Shown: positions 9,368 through 63,018 of the stretch, in pieces
How positions within the stretch are numbered: position 1 is the stretch's first letter
How the letters are laid out: the number at the start of each line of letters is the position of its first letter
From: a virus
UHGV virus genome: UHGV-0170870
DNA length: 63,018 nucleotides
Direction: 5' to 3' (one strand)
The notes under the pieces: generated by a model
Database searches by the model: none
What the model was told of the DNA's origin: nothing
The model's input: the letters and a program-made list of their open reading frames with translations, nothing else
Position numbers and translations under genes: made by a program

Positions 9368-9455
9368 TTCAACAACTACCGCACGGGTGATCCCATCTCC
9401 CGTCACCCGTGCGCCCGCGCTGTAACCTCCGTCACCTTACAAGGATCGCATCACC

Positions 9456-11261: not shown

Positions 11262-11312
11262 TATTTAATTGACAGGCTTGTAAGGCGCGTGAGATGACAT
11301 GCACCTTACGAC
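11262..11312 (+). promoter_or_regulatory. promoter-like element, class 1, with flanking inverted half-sites
   Basis: ATTTAATTGACA-N17-AGATGA; half-sites CTTGTAAGG and CCTTACGA flank the -10 region. Confidence 0.5.
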
Positions 11313-14127: not shown

Positions 14128-14170
14128 AACCCCTTGACGGGTGTGAGGCGGTAAGGTATGTCATCTGACA
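14128..14170 (+). promoter_or_regulatory. promoter-like element, class 2 (TTGACGG-TGTGAGG...TATGTC)
   Basis: TTGACG-N17-TATGTC; spacer begins GGTGTGAGG as in the 15848 copy. Confidence 0.45.
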
Positions 14171-15640: not shown

Positions 15641-15840
15641 TGAGCGGCGGAGGGTCTCCCCGATCTGATCGTGCTCTCCGTTGCTGTGGGGCCGTGGAGC
15701 CCTGATGCCGAGGCCAGGCGTTGAGCCGGGGCGGCTGGTGGTCCTGGGAGGCCGGTCAGGCGGTCAGGCTCTCAGCGGGTGGCTGTGAGGCGGTCAGGCG
15801 TTCGGCCTCTCAGTCGGTCAGTCGTTCAGCCAGGGAGGGA

Positions 15841-15909: not shown

Positions 15910-16245
15910 TTGTCCATCCAATTCACCACACCGAAAGGGAACCCGGTCGTGATCCGGCGACCCGAGCTGATCGTGTCTATGGTCGGCTACGAGCGGTCAG
16001 ATCGCGAGACCGGCGAGATGCGGCAGAACACCGCCATCACCTTCGAGAACCGTGAGGTCGTCTTCGTGAGCGGCAGCGCGGACGTGATCGAAGCGGCGCT
16101 CGAAGAGCACGCACGCGTTGCGCGCCTCAACTCGGAATACTGCGACCGCTGCCCCGCCCTGGCGAACGCGTCCGAAGAGCTGAAGCAGTACGAGGCGGTC
16201 GTGGACGCCGCCGAGCCCCCGGCAGACACGGACAATCGCCTCTGA
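15910..16245 (+). CDS. hypothetical protein (start uncertain, TTG proposed)
   Basis: ORF-track start 15721 lies upstream of the predicted promoter; first plausible start is TTG 15910 after GAGG. Confidence 0.3.
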   Translation: MSIQFTTPKGNPVVIRRPELIVSMVGYERSDRETGEMRQNTAITFENREVVFVSGSADVIEAALEEHARVARLNSEYCDRCPALANASEELKQYEAVVDAAEPPADTDNRL

Positions 16246-16889
16246 TGACCGATCCGATGCGCGCCGTGCTCGACGGCACCGATCCCGACTCCGTGCTGGT
16301 CCGCGTCCGCACCGCCGAGGGCGTCGCCCTGGCGACCCGCAAGGACTACGGCCGTCCCATCGACTATCTGCGCTATCGCGTGAAGGACAAGATCAGCGAC
16401 GCGCAGTTCATGGCGGCCGAATACTACGCTGGCGACTACTTCGCGATCTCGCCGGTCGGCTCGAACACGATGGCGACGATCAATCACCTGATGATGGCCG
16501 TGCCTCTCTCGCCGGAGGATCGCCGCATGCTCGACCAAGAGGGCATCAACGGCGGACGCATGCACTCGAAGGGCGATTGCGGCGGAGCGCCGAAGGACCC
16601 GAGCGACCGCATGCTGAACGCGGCGTTCGCGCTGAAGCGTGTCGACGATCAACTCGACCGCGTCCAACGCGAGCTGCTCCGCGATCTGCTCATCCGCGAA
16701 CACACGGTCGGCACCATTGCGCAGCGATGGCGATGGTCGCCCGAGCAGGCTGGCATCATGGTCCGCTACGCGCTGCATCGCCTGGTCGACGTGTACGAGA
16801 ACATCAACCCCGACTTCGCGCTGTATCTGCGGCAAGAGCGCGAACGCAAGAACGAAGGCCGCGCCAACCGCAAGGGACGCCGACGCTGA
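16245..16889 (+). CDS. hypothetical protein with C-terminal HTH-like region
   Basis: 214-aa ORF; TVGTIAQRWRWSPEQAGIMVRYALHRL resembles a sigma-region-4-like HTH. Confidence 0.45.
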   Translation: MTDPMRAVLDGTDPDSVLVRVRTAEGVALATRKDYGRPIDYLRYRVKDKISDAQFMAAEYYAGDYFAISPVGSNTMATINHLMMAVPLSPEDRRMLDQEGINGGRMHSKGDCGGAPKDPSDRMLNAAFALKRVDDQLDRVQRELLRDLLIREHTVGTIAQRWRWSPEQAGIMVRYALHRLVDVYENINPDFALYLRQERERKNEGRANRKGRRR

Positions 16890-17020
16890 TGCGCTGGTCT
16901 GGATACGCCCGCGATCTCGACGACATGGTCGCCACGCAGCGCTTTGTCAAAACGGTCGCGTTCGCCGCAGGACTGATCGTTCTTCAAGTCCTGCTCTTCG
17001 CCCTCTGCTTCATCCACTAA
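16889..17020 (+). CDS. small hydrophobic protein (43 aa)
   Basis: ATG overlaps upstream stop (TGATG); C-terminal hydrophobic stretch. Confidence 0.3.
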   Translation: MRWSGYARDLDDMVATQRFVKTVAFAAGLIVLQVLLFALCFIH

Positions 17021-17181
17021 CCCGGAGACCACCATTGAAGACACTCGACGAGCTGTTCTGCACGATCATGTCGATCCCCTTTGTCGACACGAACATCAAG
17101 ACTCGAGCAGGCTATCTGCGGACCCAGGTCTGCAAGCAGGGTCGCGGATACGACCTCTACCGCATGTTCGGATTCTGATCC

Positions 17182-17730
17182 ATGCTTTTCCCGTACCGCA
17201 TGATGGTGGTCGGTCATGGCCGACACGGCAAAGACACTGCCGCTGAAATTCTGCGCGATCACTATGGCGCGACGTTCGTCTCGTCGAGCTGGTTCATGGC
17301 AGAGCGTGTCGTGTTTCCGTACTTCTGCGAGAAGTACCCCGGCAAGTATGCCTCGGCGCAAGAGTGCTACGATGACCGCGCGAACGAGCGCTCGACGTGG
17401 TTCAATCTGATCGCCGAGAGCAATGCGGCCGATCTCACGAAGTTGGGTCGCGCGATCTTCGCGAAGTACGATCTCTACGTCGGCAACAGGAACGCCCGCG
17501 AGTTTCACGCCCTGCGGAACGCCAGCGTGTTCGACATCTCGATTTGGATCGACGCGTGCGAGCGCCTCGAATACCGCGAGCCCCGCACGTCCCTCACAAT
17601 CGAGCCCTGGATGTGCGATTACGTGGTCGACAACAACGGCACCCAGGCCGATCTCAAGCGGAACCTGGCCTCGCTGATGCACGGATTGCGGACCAAGTCC
17701 TTGATCCAAAAGGGATTGTCAGCAGCGTGA
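17182..17730 (+). CDS. P-loop kinase-like protein (possible deoxynucleoside monophosphate kinase)
   Basis: N-terminal VVGHGRHGKDTAAE resembles phage dNMP kinase N-termini. Confidence 0.4.
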   Translation: MLFPYRMMVVGHGRHGKDTAAEILRDHYGATFVSSSWFMAERVVFPYFCEKYPGKYASAQECYDDRANERSTWFNLIAESNAADLTKLGRAIFAKYDLYVGNRNAREFHALRNASVFDISIWIDACERLEYREPRTSLTIEPWMCDYVVDNNGTQADLKRNLASLMHGLRTKSLIQKGLSAA

Positions 17731-17760
17731 CCTGACAAGCCGGCCGAGGGAAGTTTGTGA

Positions 17761-17803
17761 GGGGAAAAAGTTGACGTTGGGATGTCAACTGCCTATTTTC
17801 CCC
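17761..17803. promoter_or_regulatory. 43-bp nested palindrome (candidate operator or centromere-like site)
   Basis: GGGGAAAA-AGTTGAC-GTTGGGAT-GTCAACT-GCCTA-TTTTCCCC. Confidence 0.4.
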
Positions 17804-17940
17804 ATACGGACAAATGGGCGAGGGGCCGGAACGAGAGTTACCCGGCATCGCCTAGTCTGAACCGACCCCGGCCTTGGCCGACATTCCGAACCCCGGCGCT
17901 TCAGTGCGTCGGGGTTTCGCGTTTCCACTAGGAGCCCGTC

Positions 17941-18817: not shown

Positions 18818-19465
18818 ATGAACATCCCGCATCTGGTATTCGTCGGCGCTGACAAAGGTGGCGTCGGCAAGACCATGCTGAGCCGCGCACTGCTCGGCTA
18901 CTACGGTGCCAACGGCATCGACTTCCGCGCGTTCGACACGCAATCCCCGAGCGGCGGCCTGCAACGTTTCTTTCCTGGCCGCGCGCAGATCGTGGACATC
19001 ACCAAGTCGACCGATCAGGTCAAGGTGTTCGACGACCTGGCATCGACCCAGGTGACCGTCGTCGACGTGTGCGCCGGTCTGTTGTCGCCCACGCTGAAGA
19101 CGCTCGACGTTGTCGGCTTCTTCGACGCGGCGAAGCAGAACAAGCTGCGCATCACTGTGCTGCATGTCGTCGGTCCTGCGACGCAATCGCTCGACGAGAT
19201 CAAGCCCGTGATGGCAGCGCTCGCAGGATCGAAGCACGTTGTGCTCGCGAACCATATCGACGACACCGCGTACGATGTACCGGCTGGCGCGCTCAACATT
19301 CCCCGGCTGGATGGGGAAGCGGCGAAGGCCGTCGACGCGGTCGCGCAACCGTTCCACGACTTCATCGGAAGCCAGGCGTCCTTCGTGCTGCGCGGCTACA
19401 CGCGAAGCTGGTTGAAGGACGTGTTCGCGCAGTTCGACGCTGCGCAGCTCAACAACCTGGCCTGA
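18818..19465 (+). CDS. ParA/MinD-family partition ATPase (small ParA)
   Basis: Deviant Walker A VGADKGGVGKT near N-terminus; 215 aa. Confidence 0.6.
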   Translation: MNIPHLVFVGADKGGVGKTMLSRALLGYYGANGIDFRAFDTQSPSGGLQRFFPGRAQIVDITKSTDQVKVFDDLASTQVTVVDVCAGLLSPTLKTLDVVGFFDAAKQNKLRITVLHVVGPATQSLDEIKPVMAALAGSKHVVLANHIDDTAYDVPAGALNIPRLDGEAAKAVDAVAQPFHDFIGSQASFVLRGYTRSWLKDVFAQFDAAQLNNLA

Positions 19466-23509: not shown

Positions 23510-24018
23510 TGGCGTTTGTCCTTTCGAGCGTGTCGCCCCCGCGTGTGCGGTGGCAGGTGTGTAAGGTAGCACACCTAACGCATACAGCAAGCGTCTAGTT
23601 CGCCCCTAATGCCTGTATTCGTTGGCTTTCTTGCGTGTTGCGCGCTCGCTTAGCGCGCTCCGACATGCCACGCGCGCCAGCGTCGCGCCTTACGAGGCAT
23701 GCAATGCGCGCATGCAAAGCAAGCCGCGTGCCACGCTCCGCGCTATCGCGCTGTAATAGAGCGTGATGAGCAAGAAACACCGCGATATCAGAGACTTGCT
23801 CGCGTTTGTAACAAACCGTGATCTCGGCCGCGCCGACCCACCCCCTGGGGTGTGGGTCCCTGTCGCCACACCCCCTCCCACCGGGGGCAGTCGCCGCCCC
23901 CGAAAGTCGGCAACGTTTTAGCGAATTTGCTCACTCTTGATCGCACGGGTCGCCCCCGCGAGCTATGCGCCTCACGCGTGAGAAACGTCACCTAACACCC
24001 CCTTTGGAGCCCCCGAAC

Positions 24019-24402
24019 ATGGCAAACACGTCGCATTCGCCTCGTCGCCGGGGCGGTGTTGACGCTTGCGTCAACGAACTACCGAAGACCATCAAGATCG
24101 GTGCCTACGATTGGACGATCTGCATCCGAGATGGAGCGGACGACAAGTACGGTCAAGCCGATTTCGAGTACAGCCAGATCAACATCTGGCCGAGAAACCT
24201 AACGAGCCCCGGTCACGGCGTCGGAATAGTGCTGCATGAATGCCTGCACGTCATATTCGACAACCACGGGCTCGGCAGACTGAAGCGGGATAAAGAGGAT
24301 CGTGAAGAGCAGATCGTTCTCGGCTTCGAGGCGGGCCTGGTCTCGCTGTTCCGCGACAATCCGAAGCTGCTCGTCTGGATGAGGCGGTGGCTTCATGGCT
24401 GA
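24019..24402 (+). CDS. hypothetical protein with HExxH zinc-metallopeptidase-like motif
   Basis: VLHECLHVIF motif; ATG 24019 with GGAG RBS; immediately upstream of terminase small subunit; ORF track starts at 23965. Confidence 0.45.
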   Translation: MANTSHSPRRRGGVDACVNELPKTIKIGAYDWTICIRDGADDKYGQADFEYSQINIWPRNLTSPGHGVGIVLHECLHVIFDNHGLGRLKRDKEDREEQIVLGFEAGLVSLFRDNPKLLVWMRRWLHG

Positions 24403-25036
24403 ACAGTACCCGCGAAAGCTCCCCGCAAAGCAGCTCGCGATACTGTTTGGTGTGAGTGAACAACGAATCTCGCAGCTCAAGCGCAAAGGGAAGCTAAACC
24501 CCGACAGCGCGAACCTCTACGACGTGCAAGAGGCCAAGCAGTTGCGCGGTTTCCAGATGAGCGAGCACGGCGTACGCGTCGTCGCACAAACATACGGCAA
24601 CGGCACCGGCAAGATCGCGCCGCCGAAGGTGACGCCGATGAATGCCGACGTGGTTCTCTCCCCCGAGGATCGCGAGGCACTCGGTATCGAGCCCAATGAG
24701 CAGATCGCGCCGTCGCCAAACAGTCACTTCGTGGCGGCAAGCCGCATCACGGAGCTGCGCGAGCAGAAGATCAAGGCCGAGATCGAGCGTATCGAGACGC
24801 GGGCCAAGAGAGAACGGGGCGAGCTGGTCGAAAGAGCGAAGGTGCAATCGTCGTTCATTGAGGCCGGAGCGCGGATCGCGGCGATCCTTCAGAACTTGCC
24901 TGCCGAGATCGCTTCGATCTTTGCGGACCCCGACAAGAAAGCCGAGGTCCGGCTGAAGGTGCAAACGCGCGTCGATCAGGCGCAGCACACGCTCTACACG
25001 TCAATGCGCGACTACGGAGAAGATGATGCTGGCTGA
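24395..25036 (+). CDS. terminase small subunit (DNA-binding)
   Basis: N-terminal HTH LAILFGVSEQRISQLKRKG; position directly upstream of terminase large subunit. Confidence 0.55.
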   Translation: MAEQYPRKLPAKQLAILFGVSEQRISQLKRKGKLNPDSANLYDVQEAKQLRGFQMSEHGVRVVAQTYGNGTGKIAPPKVTPMNADVVLSPEDREALGIEPNEQIAPSPNSHFVAASRITELREQKIKAEIERIETRAKRERGELVERAKVQSSFIEAGARIAAILQNLPAEIASIFADPDKKAEVRLKVQTRVDQAQHTLYTSMRDYGEDDAG

Positions 25037-26885
25037 CCCATTATTCGCAGGGCTGGCCGAAGGATTGAAGCCGAAGCCTCGGCTGAAGCTGTCTGAGTGG
25101 GCGGAAGCGAACCTAGTGCTGCCGCCTGAACGATCCGCGAGCCCCGGCCCATATCGCATCGGCGACGCGGTCTTCCAACGCGGCATGATGGACGCGATCA
25201 CCGATCCCGACAATGAGGACATCGTCTTCATCACGTCGTCCCAGGTCGGCAAGACGACCATCCTTGTCGCGGCGCAAGGCTACTACTGCGAGGCGGAGCC
25301 GTGCGCGCAGCTCTCGGCGTGGCCTACGCAAGACCTGGCCGACAAGTACCAAGAAGAGTCGTTCGATACCACGGTGAGAGATTCGCCGAAGTGGAGAGCG
25401 GCGATGACTGGCAGCACCGAATATAAGGGCGGCCAGATCAATTTCGTCGGCGCGAACACGCCGAACAAGCTCGCGATGCGGCCCATCCGTGTCGTTACGG
25501 GCGACGAGATCGACCGATGGCCCCTCAGCTCGTCGAAGGAAGGTTCGCCGGTCGAACTCGCCAAGAAGCGACGCACGACATACCACAACCGCAAAGGCCT
25601 GTGGGTGTCGACGCCGGTTCACGAAGACACCAGCGTCATCGTCCAGCTCTTCAAAGAGACGCGGCAACACTACTTCCTCGTTACCTGCCCCGATTGCTCC
25701 GCCAAGCAAGTGCTGAAGTGGGACAACATCGTCTACAAGAAGGGGCAGGAGGAAGACGCGCTCTATCACTGCGACGACTGCGGTGCGCTGTGGACCGAGA
25801 TGACAAAGCGCCGTCTCGTTCGCGAGGGCGAATGGCATCAAGTCGGCACCGTGATCGGCACGCAGAAGGATGGCACGCCGATCCGACTGGCGACCCCGTT
25901 CAAATGCTTCAAGGTAGACGCTGGCGTGACGCCTGCGCGCGAGAAGATCGGTTTCTGGATCAACGAGCTGTATTCGCCGTGGGTCTCGATGCGAGAGATC
26001 GCGAAGGCCTGGTCAGACTCGGAGGGCAACCCCGAGAAAGAACAGACCTTCTACAACACGCGTCTCGGTCTTCCGTATCGCGGCGACATTTCGAGCTTCG
26101 CGGACCCTGAGAACTTGAAGTCGAGGCGTGAGAAGTATGATCCTGAGATCGTGCCGAAGCGCGCGGCGCTGCTCACAGCGGCCGTCGACGTGCAGGACGA
26201 CCGCCTCGAAGTGCTGGTCGTGGCCTGGGGCAAGGGCGATGAGTGCTGGCTTCTGAAGCATCACGTCATCCAGCTCGGCCCGAACACGGACGAAGCGTGG
26301 GACGAACTCGCGAAGTTCCTCGAAAGCGGCTTCAAGCACGAAGGCGCGGCAGGGGAGACGCTCGGCATCTTCTCCGCCACTATCGACTCGGGCTCGGGCG
26401 CGCACACGCAGAAGGTCTACGACTTCAGCAACAAATGGCTGTTGGTCGGACGACGCTGGTACGCGCACAAGGGCGTGCCCGGCGACAAGAAGCCAGTCTG
26501 GATTAAGTCGGAGCAGCGCTTCAAGGACAAGACGAAGCTGTTTCTCGTCGGCACCTACGACGCGAAGGCGACCATCTACACGCGATACGCAAACGCGAAG
26601 GTGGGGCCTGGCTACGTGCATATCCATGAGGGCATCTCGGACGACAAGATCGACCAGATGACCGCTGAGCGCGCGGAGACGGACTACAAAGATGGTTTCC
26701 CCGTTCGAACGTGGACGAAGCCTCGGCATCGTCGAAACGAGATGCTCGATCTCATGGTCTACAACTACGCGGTTCGGTGTTCGGTGAACATCGACATGGA
26801 TCATTGGATCAAGCGGCTCAACACCCCCAAAGAACAACAGCCGAAGCAGCTCAACGCTGCCGACATCGGCAAGCTGTTCAAATAG
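25023..26885 (+). CDS. terminase large subunit (lambda GpA-like)
   Basis: 620 aa; P-loop FITSSQVGKTT; position and size match GpA-type terminases. Confidence 0.8.
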   Translation: MMLADPLFAGLAEGLKPKPRLKLSEWAEANLVLPPERSASPGPYRIGDAVFQRGMMDAITDPDNEDIVFITSSQVGKTTILVAAQGYYCEAEPCAQLSAWPTQDLADKYQEESFDTTVRDSPKWRAAMTGSTEYKGGQINFVGANTPNKLAMRPIRVVTGDEIDRWPLSSSKEGSPVELAKKRRTTYHNRKGLWVSTPVHEDTSVIVQLFKETRQHYFLVTCPDCSAKQVLKWDNIVYKKGQEEDALYHCDDCGALWTEMTKRRLVREGEWHQVGTVIGTQKDGTPIRLATPFKCFKVDAGVTPAREKIGFWINELYSPWVSMREIAKAWSDSEGNPEKEQTFYNTRLGLPYRGDISSFADPENLKSRREKYDPEIVPKRAALLTAAVDVQDDRLEVLVVAWGKGDECWLLKHHVIQLGPNTDEAWDELAKFLESGFKHEGAAGETLGIFSATIDSGSGAHTQKVYDFSNKWLLVGRRWYAHKGVPGDKKPVWIKSEQRFKDKTKLFLVGTYDAKATIYTRYANAKVGPGYVHIHEGISDDKIDQMTAERAETDYKDGFPVRTWTKPRHRRNEMLDLMVYNYAVRCSVNIDMDHWIKRLNTPKEQQPKQLNAADIGKLFK

Positions 26886-48618: not shown

Positions 48619-49121
48619 TCCCGGCCTGGCTGACCTGGCAAGCCATCAGCCTGATCGGCGGTAAGCTCTGGAAGGGCTTCTGCGACTTCATCTCCACGCC
48701 AGTAGGCGCGGCGCTCGTCGCCGGGTTCTGCCTGTTCTGGATCGGCGTCTGGCATGAACACGGCAATCTCGTCGAGGCCGTGAAGGCGAAGGACGCCGCG
48801 TGGCAAAGGAAGTGGGACGACGCCGAGAAGCAAGCTGAGCTGGATCGCCAGAAGCGCGACGCGCTCATCCAAGCTGACATGCAGGCGAAAGCCGACAAGA
48901 GCTTGTCCGAGGTCAGCTCCCGCAAAGATCAACTCGAACAGATGGTCAAGGACTATGAGGACCAACAGCTTCTACAGGCCGCGACGGGCAAGCCTGCCTG
49001 TCCTCCTGAGTACACTGACGACTCTGACGCTCGGTGGCTGCGTGACATCGAGCGACACAAGGACGCTAAGTCCAAAGCAGGCAGTCGACCTGCCCTCCGA
49101 ATGCGAACGATTGATCGTTGA
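48615..49121 (+). CDS. i-spanin (Rz-like)
   Basis: N-terminal TM helix then charged coiled-coil-like periplasmic domain. Confidence 0.45.
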   Translation: MIPAWLTWQAISLIGGKLWKGFCDFISTPVGAALVAGFCLFWIGVWHEHGNLVEAVKAKDAAWQRKWDDAEKQAELDRQKRDALIQADMQAKADKSLSEVSSRKDQLEQMVKDYEDQQLLQAATGKPACPPEYTDDSDARWLRDIERHKDAKSKAGSRPALRMRTIDR

Positions 49122-49278
49122 CGTTCCGATCCCTGGTGTCGTCGACGCACACGGCAAGCCGATCATGAGGCGCGTCGTTCTGAGGCGAACTCAAGCCGCG
49201 ATGGTCGAGCAGCACGAATACAACGCTGCGGCCCGTGAGTGCTTCGCCGATCAGCGTAACGCCTATCAGTCGAAGTGA
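48955..49278 (+). CDS. o-spanin (Rz1-like lipoprotein) in +1 frame overlapping i-spanin
   Basis: Signal peptide with lipobox LTLGGC; embedded in the 3' end of the Rz-like gene in another frame. Confidence 0.45.
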   Translation: MRTNSFYRPRRASLPVLLSTLTTLTLGGCVTSSDTRTLSPKQAVDLPSECERLIVDVPIPGVVDAHGKPIMRRVVLRRTQAAMVEQHEYNAAARECFADQRNAYQSK

Positions 49279-49316
49279 TCCGGCGCAGACGGGATACCTG
49301 CCGGAGACCCCGAGGC

Positions 49317-49350
49317 GGCCCGCAGTCCTGACCGGCTGCGGGCCTCTTTT
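49317..49350 (+). terminator. intrinsic terminator after spanin genes
   Basis: GGCCCGCAG...CTGCGGGCC stem followed by TCTTTT. Confidence 0.5.
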
Positions 49351-49361
49351 CGTGTGGACTG

Positions 49362-49412
49362 CCATTTAATTGACGGAACCGATAGGTCTGTGAGATAGCA
49401 GACCTTACAGTC
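49362..49412 (+). promoter_or_regulatory. promoter-like element, class 1
   Basis: ATTTAATTGACG-N17-AGATAG followed by GCAGACCTTACAG; upstream of phosphoesterase gene. Confidence 0.5.
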
Positions 49413-53618: not shown

Positions 53619-53798
53619 CTGTCATTCCCCTCGACTCAGCTATATGCCGCTCAGCGGCCGGTAGACGCTCGTCACCTATCATACCTTACAGGCCGAGCAA
53701 AGCGTTTTCTTTGATTTCCGATCCTAAGCCATTGGTGGAATTGTGGTGGGGTCCTCGGGGTCTTTGAGACCAACCCCATTGAAAACATTGAATAAGCT

Positions 53799-53848
53799 TC
53801 GGACTCTTAATCAGCGGGTCCCAGGTTCGAGCCCTGGTGCGCCCACCA
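53799..53848 (+). other. tRNA 3'-portion-like sequence (anticodon-loop-like, T-arm, acceptor 3' strand, CCA); candidate phage attachment core
   Basis: Perfect T-arm CCAGG-TTCGAGC-CCTGG followed by TGCGCCC-A-CCA; no matching 5' acceptor strand or D-arm upstream, so not an intact tRNA gene; lies 40 bp from integrase stop. Confidence 0.45.
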
Positions 53849-53887: not shown

Positions 53888-55018
53888 CTAGAACCTGTCA
53901 GCGGGTCTTTGAACAGTCTTTGACGTAAACGAGCCCGGTTCGTTCCCCTCGACCTTACAAGCTCCTGACGCAAACATGCCAGCGAGCTTCGCCATCGCGC
54001 TCTCCGCCAGGCGCAGATCGCGCCCGAGGTAGTGCCGGTCCAGAATGTGCTCCACGTCCTTCAGGCTGTGGCCGGTGAACGTGGCGATCTCCGGCACTGT
54101 GCATTCGGCGAGCGCCAGGCGCACCACCGCTGAGCCGCGCAGATCGTGGAACGTCAAGTCCTCGTTGATCCCCACGTCGATCAGGGCGTCGCCCCAGGAC
54201 GACCGGAAGCCGTCCTCTGTCCACGGCTTGGCCCGAGAGTTGGTCAGCACCAGCGGCCCGACCCGCTTCATGGAGTCGAGGTAGGTCTTGAGCACGGGGC
54301 TGACAGGGATGGTGACCCGCTTGGCCTTGGCGACCTTGCCGTGGCGTATGGTCTTGCGCTGCGTGAGCCTGATGTAGGTTCCGTCGTAATCCGACCAGCG
54401 CAGGCGGATCAGATCGCCCTCCCGCTGGCCGGTCCAGATCGCGAGCATGAGCGCGTCGACGATCCGCTCCGGGGCTTTCTCGATCATGAGCCCGAGCTGC
54501 GCTTCGGACCATATCTTGTCGAGGCGATCCCCGCCCTCGTAGAGACGGCCGCCGCGCTCGCAGGGATTGACGCTGATGCGTCCGCGATCCTTGGCGACGG
54601 AGAAGATGCGGGCGAGCACGGTCCACGCATAGTCGGCCTTGCGAGGCTTGTCTGCGAACCCATCGCGCCAGGTCTTGAAGACGCCACGCGCGCCCTTCTG
54701 TTCGACGGCCGCAATCGGCATCGTGCCGAACTCTTGCTCGATGAGGGCGATGTAACGGAGGTAGTCTTTCTTCGTCTTGTCGCTGAGCACTCGGTACTCG
54801 GACGACGCTTTGAACTCGACGATGAGCGCGAAGACCGTGGCGTCTGACACGGTCTTCTTGCTCGCTATGTGCTCGTTGAACTCGGTGATGAATGCGGGCG
54901 TGCCGTACTTCGCCTTGATGCGGGGGCCGCCCTTCCACGCGTAGTAGTACCGACGCTTCTTGCCGCCGCCGATCTTGGCGTCGGACCAGAACAGGCCGAA
55001 CAGGTCTACGCGCATCAC
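53888..55018 (-). CDS. int: tyrosine-type site-specific integrase
   Basis: 376 aa; C-terminal catalytic region with HDLRGS and HYLGRD (Tyr); adjacent to tRNA-like att sequence. Confidence 0.85.
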   Translation of the reverse strand: MMRVDLFGLFWSDAKIGGGKKRRYYYAWKGGPRIKAKYGTPAFITEFNEHIASKKTVSDATVFALIVEFKASSEYRVLSDKTKKDYLRYIALIEQEFGTMPIAAVEQKGARGVFKTWRDGFADKPRKADYAWTVLARIFSVAKDRGRISVNPCERGGRLYEGGDRLDKIWSEAQLGLMIEKAPERIVDALMLAIWTGQREGDLIRLRWSDYDGTYIRLTQRKTIRHGKVAKAKRVTIPVSPVLKTYLDSMKRVGPLVLTNSRAKPWTEDGFRSSWGDALIDVGINEDLTFHDLRGSAVVRLALAECTVPEIATFTGHSLKDVEHILDRHYLGRDLRLAESAMAKLAGMFASGACKVEGNEPGSFTSKTVQRPADRF

Positions 55019-55024
55019 GCTCTC

Positions 55025-55285
55025 CTAGCTGACAGCCCTCCGCCTGGAAGCCTGCCAGTCTGCGAGGGGATCGCCCGAGACGGTCTTTTCGGTAGGCAGA
55101 CCGGAAGCCCGGTCCAGATACCAATCAATCGCCTTGCGGTCCCACCGCTGCGTGCCGGGGATCGCCCCCGGCACAATACCCCTCTTGACCCAGGTGTCGA
55201 AGGCGTCGGTGCTGCACCCGCAATAGGCTGCCGCGTGTTCCTTCGTCAGGCCGCGAGGGGCGATCTGGTCGGCGGGTAATATCAC
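55025..55285 (-). CDS. excisionase / AlpA-like HTH DNA-binding protein
   Basis: LTKEHAAAYCGCSTDAFDTWVKRGIVPGAIP...W HTH pattern; likely GTG start at 55285; ORF track extends to 55363. Confidence 0.5.
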   Translation of the reverse strand: MILPADQIAPRGLTKEHAAAYCGCSTDAFDTWVKRGIVPGAIPGTQRWDRKAIDWYLDRASGLPTEKTVSGDPLADWQASRRRAVS

Positions 55286-55290
55286 AGACC

Positions 55291-55596
55291 TTACAGTCTG
55301 TCCACAGGGATCGACGCCACGAACGACTTGGCCCGGCCGTAGAAGTATGCCCGTTGCTTGCACCGTTCGATATGCGAGTCCCGAGAGGGCGACGGCGGTT
55401 CGTTCAGCATATTGTCGACCGCCCTGCCTGCGATGTCCTCGGCGCTCGCCAGCGCGTCGTAGGCGTCGTCGAGAGCCTTCCGGCGCACCGCCACCAGGCG
55501 CAGGCGGCGCTTGGCGTGAAGGTCCCAGGCCACGATGCAGAGCAGGGCGGCCACGCTACCGTAGGTCAGGATGAGAGCCTGATCGTAGAAGTTCAT
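55291..55596 (-). CDS. hypothetical membrane protein
   Basis: Start at ATG 55596 with GGAAAGG RBS; TM helix ALILTYGSVAALLCIVAW; ORF track extends to 55866. Confidence 0.4.
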   Translation of the reverse strand: MNFYDQALILTYGSVAALLCIVAWDLHAKRRLRLVAVRRKALDDAYDALASAEDIAGRAVDNMLNEPPSPSRDSHIERCKQRAYFYGRAKSFVASIPVDRL

Positions 55597-55853: not shown

Positions 55854-55993
55854 TGACCAAACCCAATAAGGTTAGCGACGACGATGAGAATCTTGACCGC
55901 GATCATCAGGCCGCATCCGAGGGAGACACCGCCTACGATGCCAATGGCGGTCCCCTTCAGGATCGCCACGGCGCATTGCTTGAAGCTCCGCAT
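55850..55993 (-). CDS. small hydrophobic membrane protein (47 aa)
   Basis: ATG 55993 overlaps upstream stop (TGATG); MRSFKQCAVAILKGTAIGIVGGVSLGCGLMIAVKILIVVANLIGFGQ. Confidence 0.3.
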   Translation of the reverse strand: MRSFKQCAVAILKGTAIGIVGGVSLGCGLMIAVKILIVVANLIGFGQ

Positions 55994-57837
55994 CAGTCTG
56001 TCTCCACGCGTTTGAAGTAGACGCGGTAGACCGAGAAGCGGGTCTTGACGATCACGTCGCCGTGTTGGTCGAAGAACATCTCTTCGATGCGGCTTGTGGT
56101 GATCGGCTCGCCGTCGATGAAGCGACCCTTGGTGTCGCCGTAGACAGGGCCTTTGACGCAAGGCGCATGCGTCGGATCGCTGGCCGTATCGTTGTAGAAG
56201 ACCGCTTCCTTGATAGTGCCGTGGACCTGCATAGGTTCCTTTCCGAGAGGCTTGCGATTCTCCGCCCACACGAACTTGTTCTCCGTGGGGCTGAGCGACT
56301 TCGAGTTCTGATCGCCAAGCGTCTCGGCGACGAGAGCCCACATGGGGTGATGGTGGGAGCCCGCGCCGAGCCTCCACTGCGTCGTGTTCTGATTGACGAA
56401 CTCGCGGAAGAGGCGCAGCGCGGTTGTCGGGTCGATGGCGGCCATCAGAACTTCTTCCCGTTGGCAGCCAGGCGCGCTTCCGGCTTGTGGTCCGCGCGAT
56501 GCTTGTTGTACTCGCGCTTCCGGCTTGTGGTCCGCGCGATGCTTGTTGTACTCGCGCTTCTCGGCGACAGCGGTCCACAGGTCGTAGCCGTGCTGCTTCG
56601 CGTACCCTTCGATCAACGCGATGGCGTGGATCAGCCGCAACGCGCGATCGCGATTCGACATTGCCCGGTTGACGTTCGTCACCATGCGGCTGATGCGGAG
56701 CAACGCCTGACCCTTGTTGGCCGGGAGATCGTCGACAGGGGTCTTGAAGTTGAACGACGACGAGAGCGGAATGCTACCGAGGATGTCCCCGATGCGAATG
56801 ACAGCGTCGGCCAACTCGACTTCCGCCATCTTCCGCTTCGGCAGATGGTCGTCCATCAAGTTCTTGCGCTCACCTTCCATACACTCCGCCAGCTCGGACA
56901 CGACGAGCATGAGCATCTCGCCCATGTTGCGGTTGAGCTTTTCGCCGGTCGCCGGATCGTGCCACCAGTGCGCGTTGGCCGCATGGACTTCCTGCGCCCA
57001 TGCGTTCAGGCTTGCAGGACGGCCCTGCTCGAAGCGACGAAAGTCCCATCCCCCGCTCTCGCCCTTGTTGTAGTCGTCGTTTTCGAGAACAGCGTATCCG
57101 TTGTGGAAGCCGACGATGTTGTACGTCTTGCCGACCGTTAGACGACGGTTACCCTCGATGCAGCGAGCGGGGCCAAGCTTCAGCGCGCCCTTCTTCCGAT
57201 TCCACACGTCAAGCGCCTTCTCGGCCTGTGCGCGCGTCACGAACATCGACGCCGAGGGCGGAACGTCGCCAGCCGTGAACAGGTCATCGTCCTCGTTGAC
57301 ACGCGGGTCGATGTACGGCGTGCCGATCCACGGACGCTGCTCCTGCATGCGGGGCAGGGCGCGCGACGACGGACGCATCTGTTCGCCGTACAGTTCGCGC
57401 GGCGCGAGCGGCTTGGCGTCTGCGGGCAGAACGTCCTCGTTGAAGGACGCCTCGCGGTCGCGCAGCGCGTTCGCGACCTCGGACGGTTCGAGGCGTTGCG
57501 GCAACTCGGCCAGTTTCTTGCGGGCGAACTCCGCGACGGCCGGGAGGTCTTCCGGCTTCACGTCGGTCAGCCGGTTGGCCTTTCCGTGGACCCTGACGGC
57601 CGTGACAACGTGGAGCCTGTCGGGGTACGCGTCGCGCAGCTTCACCAAGAGCGCCTTGACCTCAGAGTGCGTCAAGGTGGGAGGCGCAGGCGGAGCGCCG
57701 GTCTTCGCAAAGGCGATCAGATCGGCACGGAGCTGCGCCGCCATCGCAGTTTCGATAGCCTCGCGCGTCGCACGATAGCTGCCGCCGAAGTCCTTCGGGA
57801 TGAGAAACAGAACAGTGGGGGTCATGGTAGGTGACAA
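55993..57837 (-). CDS. fusion ORF: unknown N-terminal domain + MazG-like NTP pyrophosphohydrolase-like domain, fused in frame to a downstream 150-aa ORF by a 40-bp tandem duplication
   Basis: MazG-like segment EMLMLVVSELAECMEGER...AEVELADAVIRIGDILG; removing one 40-bp repeat unit restores a stop (…HKPEARLAANGKKF*) overlapping ATG of the MAAIDPTT ORF. Confidence 0.5.
   Translation of the reverse strand: MSPTMTPTVLFLIPKDFGGSYRATREAIETAMAAQLRADLIAFAKTGAPPAPPTLTHSEVKALLVKLRDAYPDRLHVVTAVRVHGKANRLTDVKPEDLPAVAEFARKKLAELPQRLEPSEVANALRDREASFNEDVLPADAKPLAPRELYGEQMRPSSRALPRMQEQRPWIGTPYIDPRVNEDDDLFTAGDVPPSASMFVTRAQAEKALDVWNRKKGALKLGPARCIEGNRRLTVGKTYNIVGFHNGYAVLENDDYNKGESGGWDFRRFEQGRPASLNAWAQEVHAANAHWWHDPATGEKLNRNMGEMLMLVVSELAECMEGERKNLMDDHLPKRKMAEVELADAVIRIGDILGSIPLSSSFNFKTPVDDLPANKGQALLRISRMVTNVNRAMSNRDRALRLIHAIALIEGYAKQHGYDLWTAVAEKREYNKHRADHKPEARVQQASRGPQAGSAPGCQREEVLMAAIDPTTALRLFREFVNQNTTQWRLGAGSHHHPMWALVAETLGDQNSKSLSPTENKFVWAENRKPLGKEPMQVHGTIKEAVFYNDTASDPTHAPCVKGPVYGDTKGRFIDGEPITTSRIEEMFFDQHGDVIVKTRFSVYRVYFKRVETD
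56481..56560. repeat. Perfect 40-bp tandem duplication (2 units) inside coding sequence
   Basis: Units 56481-56520 and 56521-56560 are identical: CGGCTTGTGGTCCGCGCGATGCTTGTTGTACTCGCGCTTC; 40 is not a multiple of 3. Confidence 0.9.
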
Positions 57838-58228: not shown

Positions 58229-58726
58229 TCACAACGCTCCGGCGAGCGCTTCACGGGCGCGATGGACGCGAGACTTGACCGTCCCCATCGCGACGCCGGT
58301 TATCTCCTGCATCTCCTGATACGTGCAGCCGATCCCTGCGAGCACAACGGCATCCGCCTGCGCGTCGGGGAGATCGAGCAAAGCATCCCACGCCTCGGCC
58401 AGGATCATCGCGCGCTCCGGGTTCTCCGGCGCAACGATATGGTCCGCGTAATCCAGCTCGCCCGTATAGGTCAGCCGTTGCAGGCGCGGGCCACCGCCCT
58501 TCTGCTTGCGGTAGCCCTTGTTGAACCGATCACGGATCAGGTTCTTCAGGATCGTCATCAACCAGCCTTCCAGATTGCGGCCGTCGAAGCGCTTCCGGTT
58601 GGCGAGCGCGTTGACCATCGTCTGCGAGACCAGATCGTCCGCGTCGTCGGCATGGCCGATGTTTTTGAGCGCGTAGTTCTTGAGCAAGCGCCGCGATGCC
58701 CACACGCCCTGTTCGAATTGATCCAT
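58229..58726 (-). CDS. ECF-type sigma-70 family RNA polymerase sigma factor
   Basis: Region 2-like (VSQTMVNALANRKRFDG...WLMTILKNLIRDRF) and region 4 HTH (YQEMQEITGVAMGTVKSRVHRAREAL); start at internal ATG 58726; ORF track extends to 58879. Confidence 0.7.
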   Translation of the reverse strand: MDQFEQGVWASRRLLKNYALKNIGHADDADDLVSQTMVNALANRKRFDGRNLEGWLMTILKNLIRDRFNKGYRKQKGGGPRLQRLTYTGELDYADHIVAPENPERAMILAEAWDALLDLPDAQADAVVLAGIGCTYQEMQEITGVAMGTVKSRVHRAREALAGAL

Positions 58727-58730: not shown

Positions 58731-61019
58731 TCATTCCTTCTTGTAGCGATCATCGGACCAACCGCTGGCCGCGATGGGGAGCCCGAGCCGGTTGCCTTTC
58801 GGCAGAGCCCACACAGGCGGGGTGGTGAAGATTTCGTGGAACTCGTCCTCGCTGCCGAAGTCCTCGTCGGTCTCGGCAACGCCTTCGTCGTGGACGCTCA
58901 GCACGTTCTCGTAGCCTGCGGCTTCGGTGTTCATGATCGCGTTCGCCATCACGTCGCGAGCTGCGGCCTGCGTGACGTTCTCCGCGCCGAGCCCGCCGTA
59001 GTAGTGCTGGTCGGACCACTTGCGGGTGAAGCTGTCGTTCGCCTTGAAGATCAGCGTGCGCTTCGACTTGCCCCACGGGGTCGGCTTCCACTCGACACGC
59101 GGATACGGATAGAAGATCGAACGGCCACTCGGCAGCTTGCAGCGGAGGAACGAGCCGGTCATGTTGAACGTGATGAACTCGCCCGCCTTGAACTTCTGGC
59201 CGGGGTTCTCCACCGCGTTGATCGCCGCCTCTTCGAGGTCGTACCAGAACTGCACGATCTCCGGATTGTTCTCGCGCCAGGTGAGCTTGACCATCTCGGC
59301 CGCGAGCCAGGCCTTCTTCTTGATGCCCGACTTCCGGCCGCGATCCTTCCAGCCTTCGAGCGCGCGATCCCGGTTGTCCGGCGACGTGACGGCCCACACC
59401 GTGTCGAAGATGAGCGCCAGGTCGACGCGGTAGACCTTCGCCATGTTGGCGAACGCCGACGCGCCACCGCCGAAGCCGAGCGCGAGCACGGCGACCTTGC
59501 CGACCTGGCGCTGATCCTTGCTGACCTCTGCGACCGGGATGTTGTAAATCTGCGAGGCCGCGACCTTGTAGTTGTCGGGGCCGTTACCCTTATCGAACTC
59601 GAAGAACGCCGCGATAGCTTCGTGCGCGCCAGCCAGCCAGGGCAGGGTGCGGGCCTCGATGCCGGTCAAGTCACGCGAGCGCAGCACCCGGCCCTCGGGG
59701 GCCATGAGCATGCCGCGCAGACAGTCGGCGACCACCGAGATCGGCGGCCCGAAGATCGCAGCAATGTCCTGCCGGGACCAACCGGCCTTGATGCACTTGA
59801 TGGCGAACGGAACGTCGGTCTTCAGCGCGGGGTCGGGACGCGGCAAGTTCTGCAACTGCACGCCACGCGCGGCCCATCGGCCGGTCTGTGTCGCGCCGTG
59901 GTATTGCAGCGAGCCCTTGATCTTGCCGTCCTTGCAGACGCGCTCCGTGAAGGCCTTCAGCTTGGCGATGGACGCCTTACCGGCTTCTAGCCTGATCTCG
60001 ACCGCACGGCGCGCATCGTCCGGCAGGTCGTCCCGGCCGAGCAGCTTTTCGAGCGTTTCCTTCGAGCAGTTCTCAATCTGATGGTCTGACAGCTCATCGG
60101 CCAGACGGGCGTTGACGAACTCTTTGAGCTGCTTGACCGCGCCGAGCGTCGAGACGCGCAGTTCGGTGACCTGGCGCAGCTCGAACTCAAGGGCTTCCTT
60201 TTCCTCGTTGCAGATTTTCTCGGCCTTGGCGACCAAGTCCATGTCGACCATGATGCCACGGTCGTTGATGATCTGATCGAGGAACCAAAGCTCCTGCTCG
60301 CGCGAGATGAGCTTGGTGACGCGATGCCCGATGCCCTGCTCGACGCGAACGTCTTGCAGACAGTAGTCGTAGATGATCTTGAACTTGTCCGGCGCGTTCT
60401 CCGGGGTGAAGCGCGTTTCCGGGTTCTTCTTCGACGGCTTACGCGGCTTGCAGAGCTGCTTGATGACGCGCGAGCCGACATCGTCCTTGCGGATCGGCAG
60501 GCCGAAAGCCGGAGCGGCGTGCTCCAACTTCGCGGGCATGTTCATCGCCATCGCGCGGACCATGATGCAACGGTACTGGCGCAGGTCAGGGACCGGCCAG
60601 CCGTACTTCGGGCCTGCGACGTACAGCCAGATCAGCCGTTCGAAGTTGGCGTTCCAGGCGTGGACTTCGCCGCCAGCCTTGACGTGGTCGACGATGTCCT
60701 GGGGGCAGGGCTCGTCAGGAAACCAGAGCTGCGGTTCATCGTCGCCGAACGCATAGGCGGCGCAAAGAATCTCCGTGCTCTTGTGCTCGGCGTACTTGTG
60801 CGCGCCGACATCGGGCAGGTCGATCTCGCTGTACGTTTCCCAATCGAGATGCAGTTCGGCAGGCTTGTGGATCGCCGTGCGACGAGTGACGGGGCCATAG
60901 CCGAAGCGCTCGCGCAGAGAGGGGGGAACGTCGATCCCCATCTCGCGCATCATATCGGCGGCGCTGTCGTAGCCGAGCACTTCCCAATCGGCGAATTTGT
61001 CTAGGGCTTCATGCCGCAT
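58731..61019 (-). CDS. family A DNA polymerase with N-terminal 3'-5' exonuclease domain
   Basis: Exo motif DWETYSEID; polymerase motifs RQVGKVAVLALGFGGG and SVHDEGVAE; start proposed at ATG 61019 overlapping upstream stop; ORF track extends to 61067. Confidence 0.85.
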   Translation of the reverse strand: MRHEALDKFADWEVLGYDSAADMMREMGIDVPPSLRERFGYGPVTRRTAIHKPAELHLDWETYSEIDLPDVGAHKYAEHKSTEILCAAYAFGDDEPQLWFPDEPCPQDIVDHVKAGGEVHAWNANFERLIWLYVAGPKYGWPVPDLRQYRCIMVRAMAMNMPAKLEHAAPAFGLPIRKDDVGSRVIKQLCKPRKPSKKNPETRFTPENAPDKFKIIYDYCLQDVRVEQGIGHRVTKLISREQELWFLDQIINDRGIMVDMDLVAKAEKICNEEKEALEFELRQVTELRVSTLGAVKQLKEFVNARLADELSDHQIENCSKETLEKLLGRDDLPDDARRAVEIRLEAGKASIAKLKAFTERVCKDGKIKGSLQYHGATQTGRWAARGVQLQNLPRPDPALKTDVPFAIKCIKAGWSRQDIAAIFGPPISVVADCLRGMLMAPEGRVLRSRDLTGIEARTLPWLAGAHEAIAAFFEFDKGNGPDNYKVAASQIYNIPVAEVSKDQRQVGKVAVLALGFGGGASAFANMAKVYRVDLALIFDTVWAVTSPDNRDRALEGWKDRGRKSGIKKKAWLAAEMVKLTWRENNPEIVQFWYDLEEAAINAVENPGQKFKAGEFITFNMTGSFLRCKLPSGRSIFYPYPRVEWKPTPWGKSKRTLIFKANDSFTRKWSDQHYYGGLGAENVTQAAARDVMANAIMNTEAAGYENVLSVHDEGVAETDEDFGSEDEFHEIFTTPPVWALPKGNRLGLPIAASGWSDDRYKKE

Positions 61020-61596
61020 CGTAGCGCCCCGGATGTTTCTCGGTGCTGGTGAGCGGTTGGAAGCCACGGATCGGCGGCAGAAGCGTCGTCCAGATGTACC
61101 AGCTACAGTTCATGGTCGGACGGCCTTCGCCGGTCACGTCGAGCCGCCAGGTGAGCGGCAGGATCAACGAGGGCTTGTGCATCGCGAACAGCTCGACGCG
61201 GTTCTTGGCGTGGTACAGGCCGCTCGGCAGGAGCATCGCAATGTGGTCGATCCCCAGGATGGTCTGCGCGTGAACGAGGAACTCGTCCGACAGCGAGAAG
61301 GGAGGGTTGGTGATGATCGACGGAGCGAGCGGGCGATCCTGCGACAGGAAGTTCACGCCGATCCGGCCGTAGCCACGATCCGTCAGGTTAGACGAGAAGA
61401 CGTTGAAGCCCGCAGCCAAGAGCTGCTTCGAGATATGACCGGCTCCGCAGGCGTTCTCCCACACGTCGTTCGGCCAGCCGATCTCGCGCAGGGTGGGGAT
61501 CAAGGCGCGCGTCGTCCCCTCCGCAGTCGGAAAGAACTCATCGCCCTTCTCGCGCTTGCCGTTGCCGCCGTTCATAGCTGCGCCGATATTCTTCAC
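61009..61596 (-). CDS. DNA methyltransferase (amino-MTase, NPPF motif; probably N6-adenine)
   Basis: ENACGAGHIS (motif I-like) and IITNPPF (motif IV); 195 aa, no adjacent restriction enzyme seen. Confidence 0.55.
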   Translation of the reverse strand: MKNIGAAMNGGNGKREKGDEFFPTAEGTTRALIPTLREIGWPNDVWENACGAGHISKQLLAAGFNVFSSNLTDRGYGRIGVNFLSQDRPLAPSIITNPPFSLSDEFLVHAQTILGIDHIAMLLPSGLYHAKNRVELFAMHKPSLILPLTWRLDVTGEGRPTMNCSWYIWTTLLPPIRGFQPLTSTEKHPGRYDAA

Positions 61597-61715: not shown

Positions 61716-61760
61716 AGTGGTCGAAATGTAAGCTGACGCACCTTACACGTCAACTAAATT
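61716..61760 (-). promoter_or_regulatory. promoter-like element (TTGACG-N17-TACATT)
   Basis: Minus strand TTTAGTTGACGTGTAAGGTGCGTCAGCTTACATT upstream of methyltransferase-polymerase operon. Confidence 0.4.
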
Positions 61761-62084: not shown

Positions 62085-62315
62085 TCACTCACGGTGTGTA
62101 GCCTCGCGCATGATGGCGATTGCGAAGTCGACCGCCTCGTCCCGATCCATGCCGATAACGTCCCCGTCGTTGACGCTGAACGTGAGCCAGTAGTGCTCAC
62201 GCGCATTCACTGCGGGGTCCACCGAAGCGATGAGGGTGTCGCCACCCCCATCCTTGAACTTCAGCGTGCGCAGATCGGGGATGCCCCGGTCGTTCTTGAA
62301 CTTGATCTTCGCCAT
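62085..62315 (-). CDS. hypothetical protein
   Basis: Start at ATG 62315 overlapping upstream stop (TGATG); ORF track extends to 62498. Confidence 0.35.
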   Translation of the reverse strand: MAKIKFKNDRGIPDLRTLKFKDGGGDTLIASVDPAVNAREHYWLTFSVNDGDVIGMDRDEAVDFAIAIMREATHRE

Positions 62316-62974
62316 CAGTCCAGCGCGTCCTCGTCTTCGTCCTCGTCGTCGACCGCGCTGAAGGCTTCGCCCTTCGAACCGCCGCCCTTCGAGATCGAGT
62401 CGTCGTTGCCGAGCAACTGAACGGCGTCGACGTAGAACTTGACGCCCTTGTTGTCGTCGCGGTTGTACGCCTTCGGCTGAAGCATCAGGCGACCCCAACG
62501 GCCGCTGTACGCCTCGGTCTGGATGTCGTCGAGATCGAGAACCTCACCGGCGCTGTTGCGCACGACCGGACGCTTCGAATAGGCGTTCGGGCGAATGAGC
62601 TTCCAGCCTTCCAGATCGACCGGCTCACCCTTCGACGTGATGTCGGCCAGGTTGATGTCGGCGTCGAGGAACGGGAAGTTCAGCTTGTGGTCGGACCACT
62701 TGGTGAAGTCGGACAGGACCGACGACTCGATGATCTTGCCCTTCTTGTTCTTGAACTTCTCGGCCACCGCCAGGTCGAGGATGACCTTCTCGATGGGCGC
62801 GTGGTTCACATGGGGCGCGAAGATCATCGACGCGGCGAACTGGCCTTCGTCATCCGGCTTGGCATCGCGGGCACGGAATTTCTTCGCGAGCGCCACGAAC
62901 ACCAGGCGTCCCTTCGGAGACATCCAGCGGTCTTCGCTCTCGATGTAGTGCCACTTCTTCAGGTCGGTAGTCAT
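62315..62974 (-). CDS. putative ssDNA-binding protein with acidic C-terminal tail
   Basis: 219 aa; C-terminal KGEAFSAVDDEDEDEDALD tail; first gene of the replication operon; family assignment tentative. Confidence 0.35.
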   Translation of the reverse strand: MTTDLKKWHYIESEDRWMSPKGRLVFVALAKKFRARDAKPDDEGQFAASMIFAPHVNHAPIEKVILDLAVAEKFKNKKGKIIESSVLSDFTKWSDHKLNFPFLDADINLADITSKGEPVDLEGWKLIRPNAYSKRPVVRNSAGEVLDLDDIQTEAYSGRWGRLMLQPKAYNRDDNKGVKFYVDAVQLLGNDDSISKGGGSKGEAFSAVDDEDEDEDALD

Positions 62975-63018
62975 AGAAAGGTTACCCTCCTAGGTCTCAG
63001 GTCGTCAGGTGACAGACC

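Follow-up and report, generated by a model that had tools for sequence, protein, structure and literature searches.

The viral genome UHGV-0170870, a stretch of 63,018 nucleotides which we analysed as a whole and call the window, ends at 62975-63018 with the letters ...GTCGTCAGGTGACAGACC (in a longer version ...GGTCGTCAGGTGACAGACC) and opens at position 1 with TTACTCGTCACG. The question raised by this locus is whether the two ends belong together, as the original prediction held, and what the motif restored by joining them may be doing in front of a gene for a single-stranded DNA-binding protein (SSB). Regarding the ends, we conclude with high confidence that the window is the complete, circularly closed 63,018-bp genome of a temperate tailed Bradyrhizobium phage, opened at an arbitrary point. 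Regarding the motif, the break divides one of ten copies of a 19-bp box, which is real and probably regulatory and which we tentatively read as an operator.

The most direct evidence for continuity comes from public assemblies. A synthetic junction of 600 nt, composed of the last 300 nt and the first 300 nt of the window, is found with gapless identity (600/600 nt) in 13 public contigs and at 599/600 nt in a fourteenth, and all 14 junction-bearing loci run on into phage sequence; in one of them, a 63,073-bp JGI contig (L002), the identity to the window is 100% over 20,660 nt spanning the junction. Extending the alignments out to the contig ends showed that the full-length public contigs (63,071, 63,072 or 63,073 bp) correspond to 63,018 bp plus an assembler overlap of 53-55 nt, with the start coordinate being equal to the end coordinate, and that their break points vary (~1, 2837, 20248, 27239 and 41645); somewhat shorter contigs are broken near 9.4, 41.5 and 59.7 kb. 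Given these differing break points, there is no fixed terminus at 63018/1. One ENA contig (L006, SPAdes NODE_60_length_63073) does share the break point of the window, and its terminal 55 nt equal window positions 1-55, this being the overlap that SPAdes leaves at k = 55 when a contig is circular (63,073 - 55 = 63,018); the window was probably taken from this contig. Both the terminal k-mer overlap and the arbitrary start are what is known of circular contigs from de Bruijn graphs, from which the public contigs of this phage differ in nothing; the window is the trimmed form without overlap, and since the assembler overlap of ~55 nt has been trimmed away, comparison of both ends of the window revealed neither a direct nor an inverted terminal repeat. 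The AT-skew is unbroken over the joined ends as well. Moreover, at the GC content of the window (61.9%), the chance of its first four bases completing the missing TTAC of the box is estimated from base composition at ~0.2%, and the copy completed only by the joined ends is therefore a real observation and not a product of chance. The claim of a circular genome or circularly permuted assembly thus holds, with the junction present at 100% in 13 contigs and at least five different self-closing break points; at the same time, such end-to-end continuity is what ordinarily results when a circular assembly is written out in linear form; it is of a known kind and does not constitute new biology.

Independent confirmation is provided by integrated copies of the phage. 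In a 7.57-Mb Bradyrhizobium chromosome contig (L003/L008), the sequence runs through window positions 7809 to 1, continues directly from 63018 to 53802 and then enters host DNA with genes for tRNA-Lys, LTXXQ/Spy and DctM; a further locus (L011) shows the same run down to position 1, from 63018 to 53802 and into host DNA, and in L003 as well as L011 a tRNA-Lys(CTT) spans the attR junction. At the opposite side (attL), host DNA enters the window at 53848 and continues downward in three loci (L029, within a chromosome of 7,537,275 bp, L031 and L032), the neighbouring host genes encoding GGDEF/EAL, DUF2336, HupR/HoxA and NiFe-hydrogenase proteins. Host DNA, contact of which with either window end would have spoken against closure, adjoins only positions 53802 and 53848, and the chromosomal integration junction accordingly lies elsewhere, at the attP core ~9.2 kb from the window ends and 40 bp downstream of the integrase gene. 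A tRNA scan of the whole window detected no tRNA, the attP core being a partial tRNA only. The phage is consequently a temperate one of the Campbell type, whose attP recombines with a host tRNA gene and whose prophage is a circular permutation with the window ends interior and adjacent. Integration of tyrosine-integrase phages into tRNA genes is well known, with attP sites of the P4, P22 and HP1 type as examples, and the phage of the window resembles them in the position of the integrase beside attP, in the regeneration of the tRNA upon integration and in the permuted gene order of the prophage; it differs in that none of 50,697 deposited phage genomes is closely related to it. ACCTTAC motifs are located on both sides of the attP core (at 53671-53689 as the 19-mer, at 53952 as the 7-mer alone), at distances resembling those of arm sites. 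In one assembly (GCA_054653515.1) the phage is present twice: on contig 1 (L003), the chromosome contig, whose first base falls within the prophage at 7809, and on contig 3 (L033), a separate contig of 62,972 bp with the att core (53802...53849) as its exact limits. This points to an integrated copy existing alongside an excised (or tandem) one, or else to the assembler having split the sequence at the att repeats.

Some points weigh against closure, nevertheless. The evidence consists of assembled contigs, which do not show directly whether the DNA exists as a circle, a concatemer or a linear molecule joined at cos, the sole coverage value is the figure cov_11.7 in a contig name, and the 55-nt overlap of the SPAdes contig was observed at one contig end only. 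It might be argued, in addition, that the window ends are the true physical termini of a linear genome (cos or a short terminal repeat), their continuity stemming from end-joining of virion DNA: the large terminase is of the lambda gpA type, which makes linear virion DNA with cohesive ends probable, and cos-joined reads also assemble as a circle. We consider this extremely improbable, as at least seven public contigs are broken elsewhere, each at a coordinate of its own, and only one at 63018/1, the integrated prophage is unbroken at this point, and the break sits mid-way in a conserved box and a conserved spacer of a co-transcribed replication module. Moreover, phages of the gpA type have their cos sites beside the terminase genes, as is established for lambda, but the break is ~24 kb away from these genes on the circle. 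The cohesive ends are probably made near 24 kb instead, where a GC-rich non-coding stretch (~23.6-23.96 kb) upstream of the terminase genes is a candidate cos region; the conclusion on the genome is unaffected by the site of packaging, because cos ends, too, yield circular assemblies. Another possibility, that the element is a plasmid-like prophage maintained as a ParA-partitioned circular replicon, takes up the ParA-like gene which had been cited as a sign of circularity, and can point to the separate contig of ~63 kb in which the element appears in many assemblies. The gene in question (open reading frame (ORF) 18818-19465), however, has only a weak CbiA/ParA P-loop match below the Pfam threshold (19.9 bits against a cutoff of 25.4, E 7.5e-4), no ParB was found among the ORFs scanned, and separate circular contigs are expected from excised or replicating phage DNA. 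With a tyrosine integrase, a tRNA-Lys attP, and attL as well as attR seen in Bradyrhizobium chromosomes, this possibility is highly unlikely, and the argument from ParA is not supported: the circularity of the window is explained by the Campbell-type temperate lifestyle and not by that of a plasmid.

Two features of the rest of the genome may be mentioned at this point. Degenerate short-period repeats (8 nt and 24 nt) at 15520-15583 and 15753-15829, lying in a gap that seems to be non-coding, probably correspond to the repeat array which had been adduced alongside the ParA-like gene, and may represent iterons or a partition site. Between 19500 and 24400, the GC content is lower (55-59% as compared to ~62%), the signal from GC at third codon positions (GC3) is weak and the ORFs are mostly on the minus strand; Pfam searches with the ORFs at 19.7-24.4 kb gave essentially no matches.

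The distribution of the phage in public data calls for caution regarding its host labels. Among deposited phage genomes, the large terminase and the exonuclease reach at most 37% amino-acid identity, with short DNA matches only; both window ends, compared with the same collection at the DNA level, gave short matches (66-85%) to polymerase and hypothetical genes only and no record bridging the junction. In contrast to this, the exact SSB protein is recorded in 692 blocks of a public collection, the exact exonuclease protein in a further set, and a phage protein of 158 amino acids in 846 blocks. These proteins have been deposited under E. coli, Klebsiella, Moraxella, Haemophilus, Lacticaseibacillus, Acinetobacter, Burkholderia, 'Actinomycetes' and even Quercus suber, and among species-representative genomes the junction is present only in Streptomyces iakyrus, S. 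xylophagus and Phycicoccus jejuensis (L016-L018, NRRL assemblies), which were all sequenced in a single culture-collection project. The host DNA next to integrated copies, on the other hand, encodes Bradyrhizobium proteins (with the source names Bradyrhizobium viridifuturi, Bradyrhizobium sp. WCU1 and Bradyrhizobium sp., including ERF82xxx accessions). The true host is Bradyrhizobium of the viridifuturi / WCU1 / DFCI-1 type, and the phage, plentiful in public data both integrated in Bradyrhizobium and on stray contigs, is a widespread cross-study sequencing contaminant. Bradyrhizobium sp. of the DFCI-1 type is described as contaminating reagents and ultrapure water (Laurence et al. 2014; PMC4023998), and the spread of the phage over unrelated assemblies fits this documented role; that paper covers the bacterial contaminant, and the passages which a term search of it gave for 'phage' all concern the filtering of reads, none of them describing the prophage of the window.

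Joining the ends also makes sense of the gene order. According to a gene map based on GC3 and to public gene calls, two leftward gene blocks (6978 to 69 and 62974 to 52624) become one early/replication block of ~17 kb, in which the SNF2 helicase is followed, after further genes, by the exonuclease, a 78-amino-acid ORF, a spacer of 112 bp containing the junction, the SSB, small ORFs, the family A DNA polymerase (PolA), the ECF-type sigma factor and, further on, the integrase. That the leftward replication genes at both ends form one contiguous region had been foreseen, and the integrated chromosomal copy passes straight through the junction. The exonuclease, SSB and PolA families are adjacent and co-directional only once the ends are joined, and the order exonuclease, (small ORF), SSB, ... 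PolA is kept in relatives whose SSB identity amounts to 82, 76, 64, 63, 55 and 44%, as well as in Staphylococcus phage phiSa2wa-st1930 and Brevundimonas phage Poludnitsa, so that the window has been cut mid-way in a canonical replication module. The DUF2800-DUF2815(Enc34 SSB)-PolA module of Chi/Enc34-like and many other siphophages, matching ~1,500 deposited phage records, comprises the same Pfam families in the same co-directional order; the phage of the window differs in adding an ECF-type sigma gene after PolA (conserved in the relatives L020-L023, not called in L025 or L027) and in the interruption of the module by a highly conserved, possibly structured spacer of ~110 nt with the 19-bp box.

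Some variation was encountered in this part of the genome and in its relatives. A 40-bp tandem repeat (56473-56565, 2.3 copies, 98% matches) lies inside ORF 55993-57837, the protein of which has PHROG matches to pyrophosphatase/MazG-like proteins; its copy number differs between public assemblies, the product being 596 amino acids long in some and 610 in others, and it is at 56514-56524 that BLAST alignments are interrupted. In relative L023, the lysogeny module is swapped (16198-17844), a large serine recombinase and a DNA ligase replacing the tyrosine integrase, and relative L027 encodes a CI/LexA-like HTH-S24 repressor (3861-4571) and is devoid of GTAAGGTCTGT boxes.

The spacer in which the break falls extends from the small ORF downstream of the exonuclease to the SSB gene, and the cut runs between GTAA and GGTC of the box. 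Over its whole length, between the upstream stop codon and the start of SSB, the spacer is conserved nearly base for base in the phage of the window and in L020-L023, while the flanking DNA has diverged; the box GTAAGGTCTGT is invariant and in the same position in these five spacers, and the leader GACCTRAGACMTAGGAGGGTA, including the ribosome-binding site (RBS), is conserved in the spacer family. A pattern search of IMG/VR with the conserved spacer returned one new relative (L024), which keeps the first half of the spacer and carries the 19-mer upstream of SSB in inverted orientation; the same search of metagenome contigs gave no match. Two helices may tentatively be drawn in the aligned spacers. 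The stem of the hairpin at 19-56 is invariant save for one pair (U-A, C-G or U-G) and its loop is variable (TTGAGT, GCCA, TTCAGT, AAGCATT), and a second helix, three pairs of which are altered on both sides, brackets the junction box; both taken together, 94.6% of the cells pair as compared to 29-53% with the partners slid, in six sequences from which the structure itself had been derived. The thermodynamic z-score of the whole spacer is -1.27, and Rfam covariance models gave 0 matches at E <= 1 against L002 9600-10100. An intrinsic terminator was rejected as an explanation for the hairpin at 19-56, as no relative has a U-tract.

ACCTTAC occurs nine times on the plus and three times on the minus strand of the window, where shuffled sequences have a mean of 1.7 on both strands together, and the statement that the joined ends recreate a recurrent ACCTTAC motif is therewith confirmed. 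Ten of these 12 copies extend to the 19-nt pattern GTNA-N8-ACCTTAC, for which 0.01 copies are expected and at most one was found in 200 shuffles; one of the ten (63004-63018 plus 1-4) exists only with the ends joined. The consensus of the ten is GTAAGGT-N5-AnnTNAC. In the weak half, G1, T2 and A4 are kept, and T7, a position outside the selection pattern, is likewise present in 10/10 copies, from which it follows that the box is an imperfect dyad. All copies but one are intergenic, the exception lying over the stop codon of the major capsid gene; the strong half is oriented with local transcription in 8/10 copies (9/10 provided that ORF 49066-49365, of 99 amino acids on the minus strand, is a genuine gene), and in four cases a start codon follows 24-29 nt downstream of the box. 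At two places (11280-11309, 18 nt; 31739-31766, 16 nt), the perfect half-sites GTAAGG and CCTTAC also face each other at longer spacing than in the 19-bp box, suggesting a half-site of 6-7 bp as the recognised unit. Beside the copy at 9422, between two plus-strand genes, a perfect 11-bp inverted repeat (9378-9411, CGCACGGGTGA...TCACCCGTGCG) looks like a strong hairpin or terminator. The coordinates of all these features are compiled in Table 1.

Table 1 Features of the 63,018-nt window on both sides of the junction and elsewhere
Feature	Position	Strand	Remarks
Distal spacer part	1..68	-	Last 4 nt of box TTAC (1-4), weak -35-like GTGACG (11-6), conserved hairpin (19-56), conserved TTGGGTT at start of block (57-63)
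Conserved stem-loop UCGYCUGC..CCCC-loop-GGGG..GCGRCGA	19..56	-	100% paired in 6 sequences, 1 compensated pair
Small ORF between exonuclease and SSB	69..305	-	78 amino acids in public gene calls (84 if start 323)
DUF2800 / PD-(D/E)XK exonuclease gene	298..1593	-	431 amino acids; PF10926 + PF12705
Box copy	4116..4134	-	Between -35 TTGACG and TGT-GAGATT (extended -10-like), 24 nt upstream of ATG; conserved in L022, L023, L025
SNF2 helicase gene	4142-5428		Leftward block
Box copy	9422..9440	-	Near-palindromic, between two + strand genes; strong half against local transcription
Box copy	14151..14169	+	27 nt upstream of ATG with RBS
Box copy	23561..23579	+	Non-coding region upstream of terminase genes
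Small terminase gene	24395-25036	+	
Lambda gpA-type large terminase gene	25023-26885	+	PF05876 1.8e-60, PF20454 5.4e-79 (ATPase + nuclease domains)
Box copy	31739..31757	+	Over major-capsid stop codon, just before terminator-like hairpin
Box copy	49390..49408	-	Overlaps divergent imperfect copy, itself preceded by + strand TTGACG
Box copy	53671..53689	-	113 bp from attP core, 52 nt upstream of 158-amino-acid gene
attP core, 47 bp	53802..53848	+	Identical to 3' part of host tRNA-Lys(CTT); overlap of attL/attR junctions
Tyrosine integrase gene	53888..55015	-	PF00589, 375-amino-acid product
Box copy	55276..55294	-	Between TGGACA and TGT-GATATT (extended -10-like), upstream of 86-amino-acid ORF + integrase
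ECF-type sigma factor gene	58229..58726	-	Directly downstream of PolA; Sigma70_r2 + r4_2
Family A DNA polymerase (PolA) gene	58731..61067	-	PF00476
Box copy	61728..61746	-	Inside sigma-70 consensus promoter TTGACG-17-TACATT
Enc34/gp2.5-type SSB gene	62315..62974	-	219 amino acids; PF10991 Enc34_ssDNA-bd E 5e-11; PHROG 112 gp2.5-like
SSB-proximal spacer part	62975..63018	-	RBS, leader GACCTRAGACMTAGGAGGGTA, first 15 nt of box (+ strand writing); conserved in relatives
GGAGGG ribosome-binding site of SSB gene	62985-62990	-	
Junction box copy (no. 10)	63004..63018	-	First 15 nt GTCAGGTGACAGACC, completed by 1-4 (TTAC); in SSB direction GTAAGGTCTGTCACCTGAC

What the box does can be approached from its surroundings. 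Our preferred reading, to which we would grant slightly less than an even chance, is that of an operator which overlaps internal promoters and is bound by a dimeric regulator of the phage; it is read as an operator because at other sites it lies between the -35 and -10 elements of sigma-70-type promoters, and these arrangements recur at homologous sites in L020-L023 and L025. The inverted box in L024 is explained in the same way, as inversion is to be expected of a dyad protein site. The spacer would then be a regulatory region consisting of the conserved hairpin, one of the ten box copies and a short leader with the RBS, in which the junction copy would control an internal promoter of the SSB-PolA genes, either weak or dependent on a factor. 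Several points speak against the operator: the junction is without a sigma-70 consensus, the copy at 31739 is not at a promoter position but between a stop codon and a terminator, and the covarying stem flanking the junction box could mean an RNA or single-stranded DNA hairpin instead. Of host transcription-factor boxes, CtrA, LexA, FixK and the NifA upstream activator sequence were considered, and none fits the motif.

The original prediction had the junction box as part of a host sigma-70 promoter driving the SSB gene, with TGACGA (or GTGACG) as its -35 element. The TGACGA hexamer is indeed present on the minus strand (window 10-5), the hexamer GTGACG is situated 1 nt upstream of the junction box in the same register as the -35 TTGACG at 61728 (the junction copy GTGACGaGTAAGGTctgtcacCTGACGa and the 61728 copy TTGACGtGTAAGGTgcgtcagCTTACAt align gaplessly), and the predicted start, as read from the sequence, would give a leader of ~20 nt containing the RBS. 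As a -35, however, the hexamer is weak and not conserved, for it varies within the family (GTGACG / GTGGCC / GTGACA / CTTGCA / CTCGCA) next to an invariant box, and the -10 position is occupied by GACGAC or TGACGA, lacking the A at -11 and the T at -7. Under the criteria applied (-35/-10 with at least 9/12 matches, A2 and T6 in the -10, spacer of 16-18 nt), a scan of L002 9300-10300 across the junction gave 0 sites and no consensus promoter was called; in the 17.9-kb block, promoter-like sites are not above chance (2 vs 2.5), the one at 61728 being one of only two with the sigma-70 consensus. A promoter driving SSB, though geometrically possible, was thus not substantiated, and we regard the sigma-70 explanation as unlikely. 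The same, to a somewhat greater degree, applies to the box as a promoter element of a phage-encoded ECF-type sigma factor. Some sigma factors of phages recognise promoters consisting of a single element (phiEco32 gp36, T4 gp55), an ECF-type sigma gene is conserved beside PolA in the window and in L020-L023, and the predominant orientation of the box with transcription (8-9/10 copies) and the four copies close to start codons would be in keeping with such a role. Against it stand the dyad symmetry of the box and its inversion in L024, the lack of a partner element at a fixed spacing of 16-17 nt, the overlap of several copies with good sigma-70 -35/-10 pairs, and the case of L025, which keeps the box at one site with no sigma gene called in its locus; the box as an ECF-type -35/-10 pair was rejected for want of a fixed-spacing partner (CGACC occurring 12-17 nt away). 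Just as improbable, in our opinion, is an action of the junction box at the RNA or single-stranded DNA level, as a hairpin loop in the SSB leader serving, for example, as a translational or processing operator. The stem around GTAAGGTCT shows compensatory changes between relatives (three pairs altered on both sides, 90% of the cells paired) and the spacer as a whole is better conserved than the flanking coding DNA, but the structure derives from the same six sequences it is judged by, the z-score and the Rfam search described above lend it no support, and inverted repeats near other box copies are placed differently and are not conserved.

The boxes bear some likeness to the stoperators of mycobacteriophage L5, reportedly described by Brown and colleagues in 1997 as many asymmetric repressor sites which are intergenic and oriented with transcription. 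Dispersed, mostly transcription-oriented copies in both arms of a temperate genome are common to L5 and to the ten boxes here, yet this is a resemblance only: the present box is dyad-like, often lies over -35/-10 elements rather than in transcribed spacers, and has no linked repressor.

The practical meaning of the continuity is mainly one of bookkeeping: genes and motifs near the window ends must be read across the junction, and the integration site (53.8 kb) and the probable cos (~24 kb) are away from these ends. Host labels attached to this phage sequence are untrustworthy, and the sequence itself could serve as a contamination marker. As regards the lineage, it is doubtful, if conceivable, that the box family and the conserved exonuclease-SSB spacer represent a control circuit acting throughout the genome and not described so far, in the form of stoperator-like silencing or of a phage-ECF-sigma regulon, in uncultured Bradyrhizobium phages, a lineage which lacks a close deposited relative and would nonetheless rank among the most widespread phage contaminants of public sequence data. 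In any case, the phage offers a clean, testable family of regulatory motifs together with a conserved spacer, in a lineage without a cultured relative.

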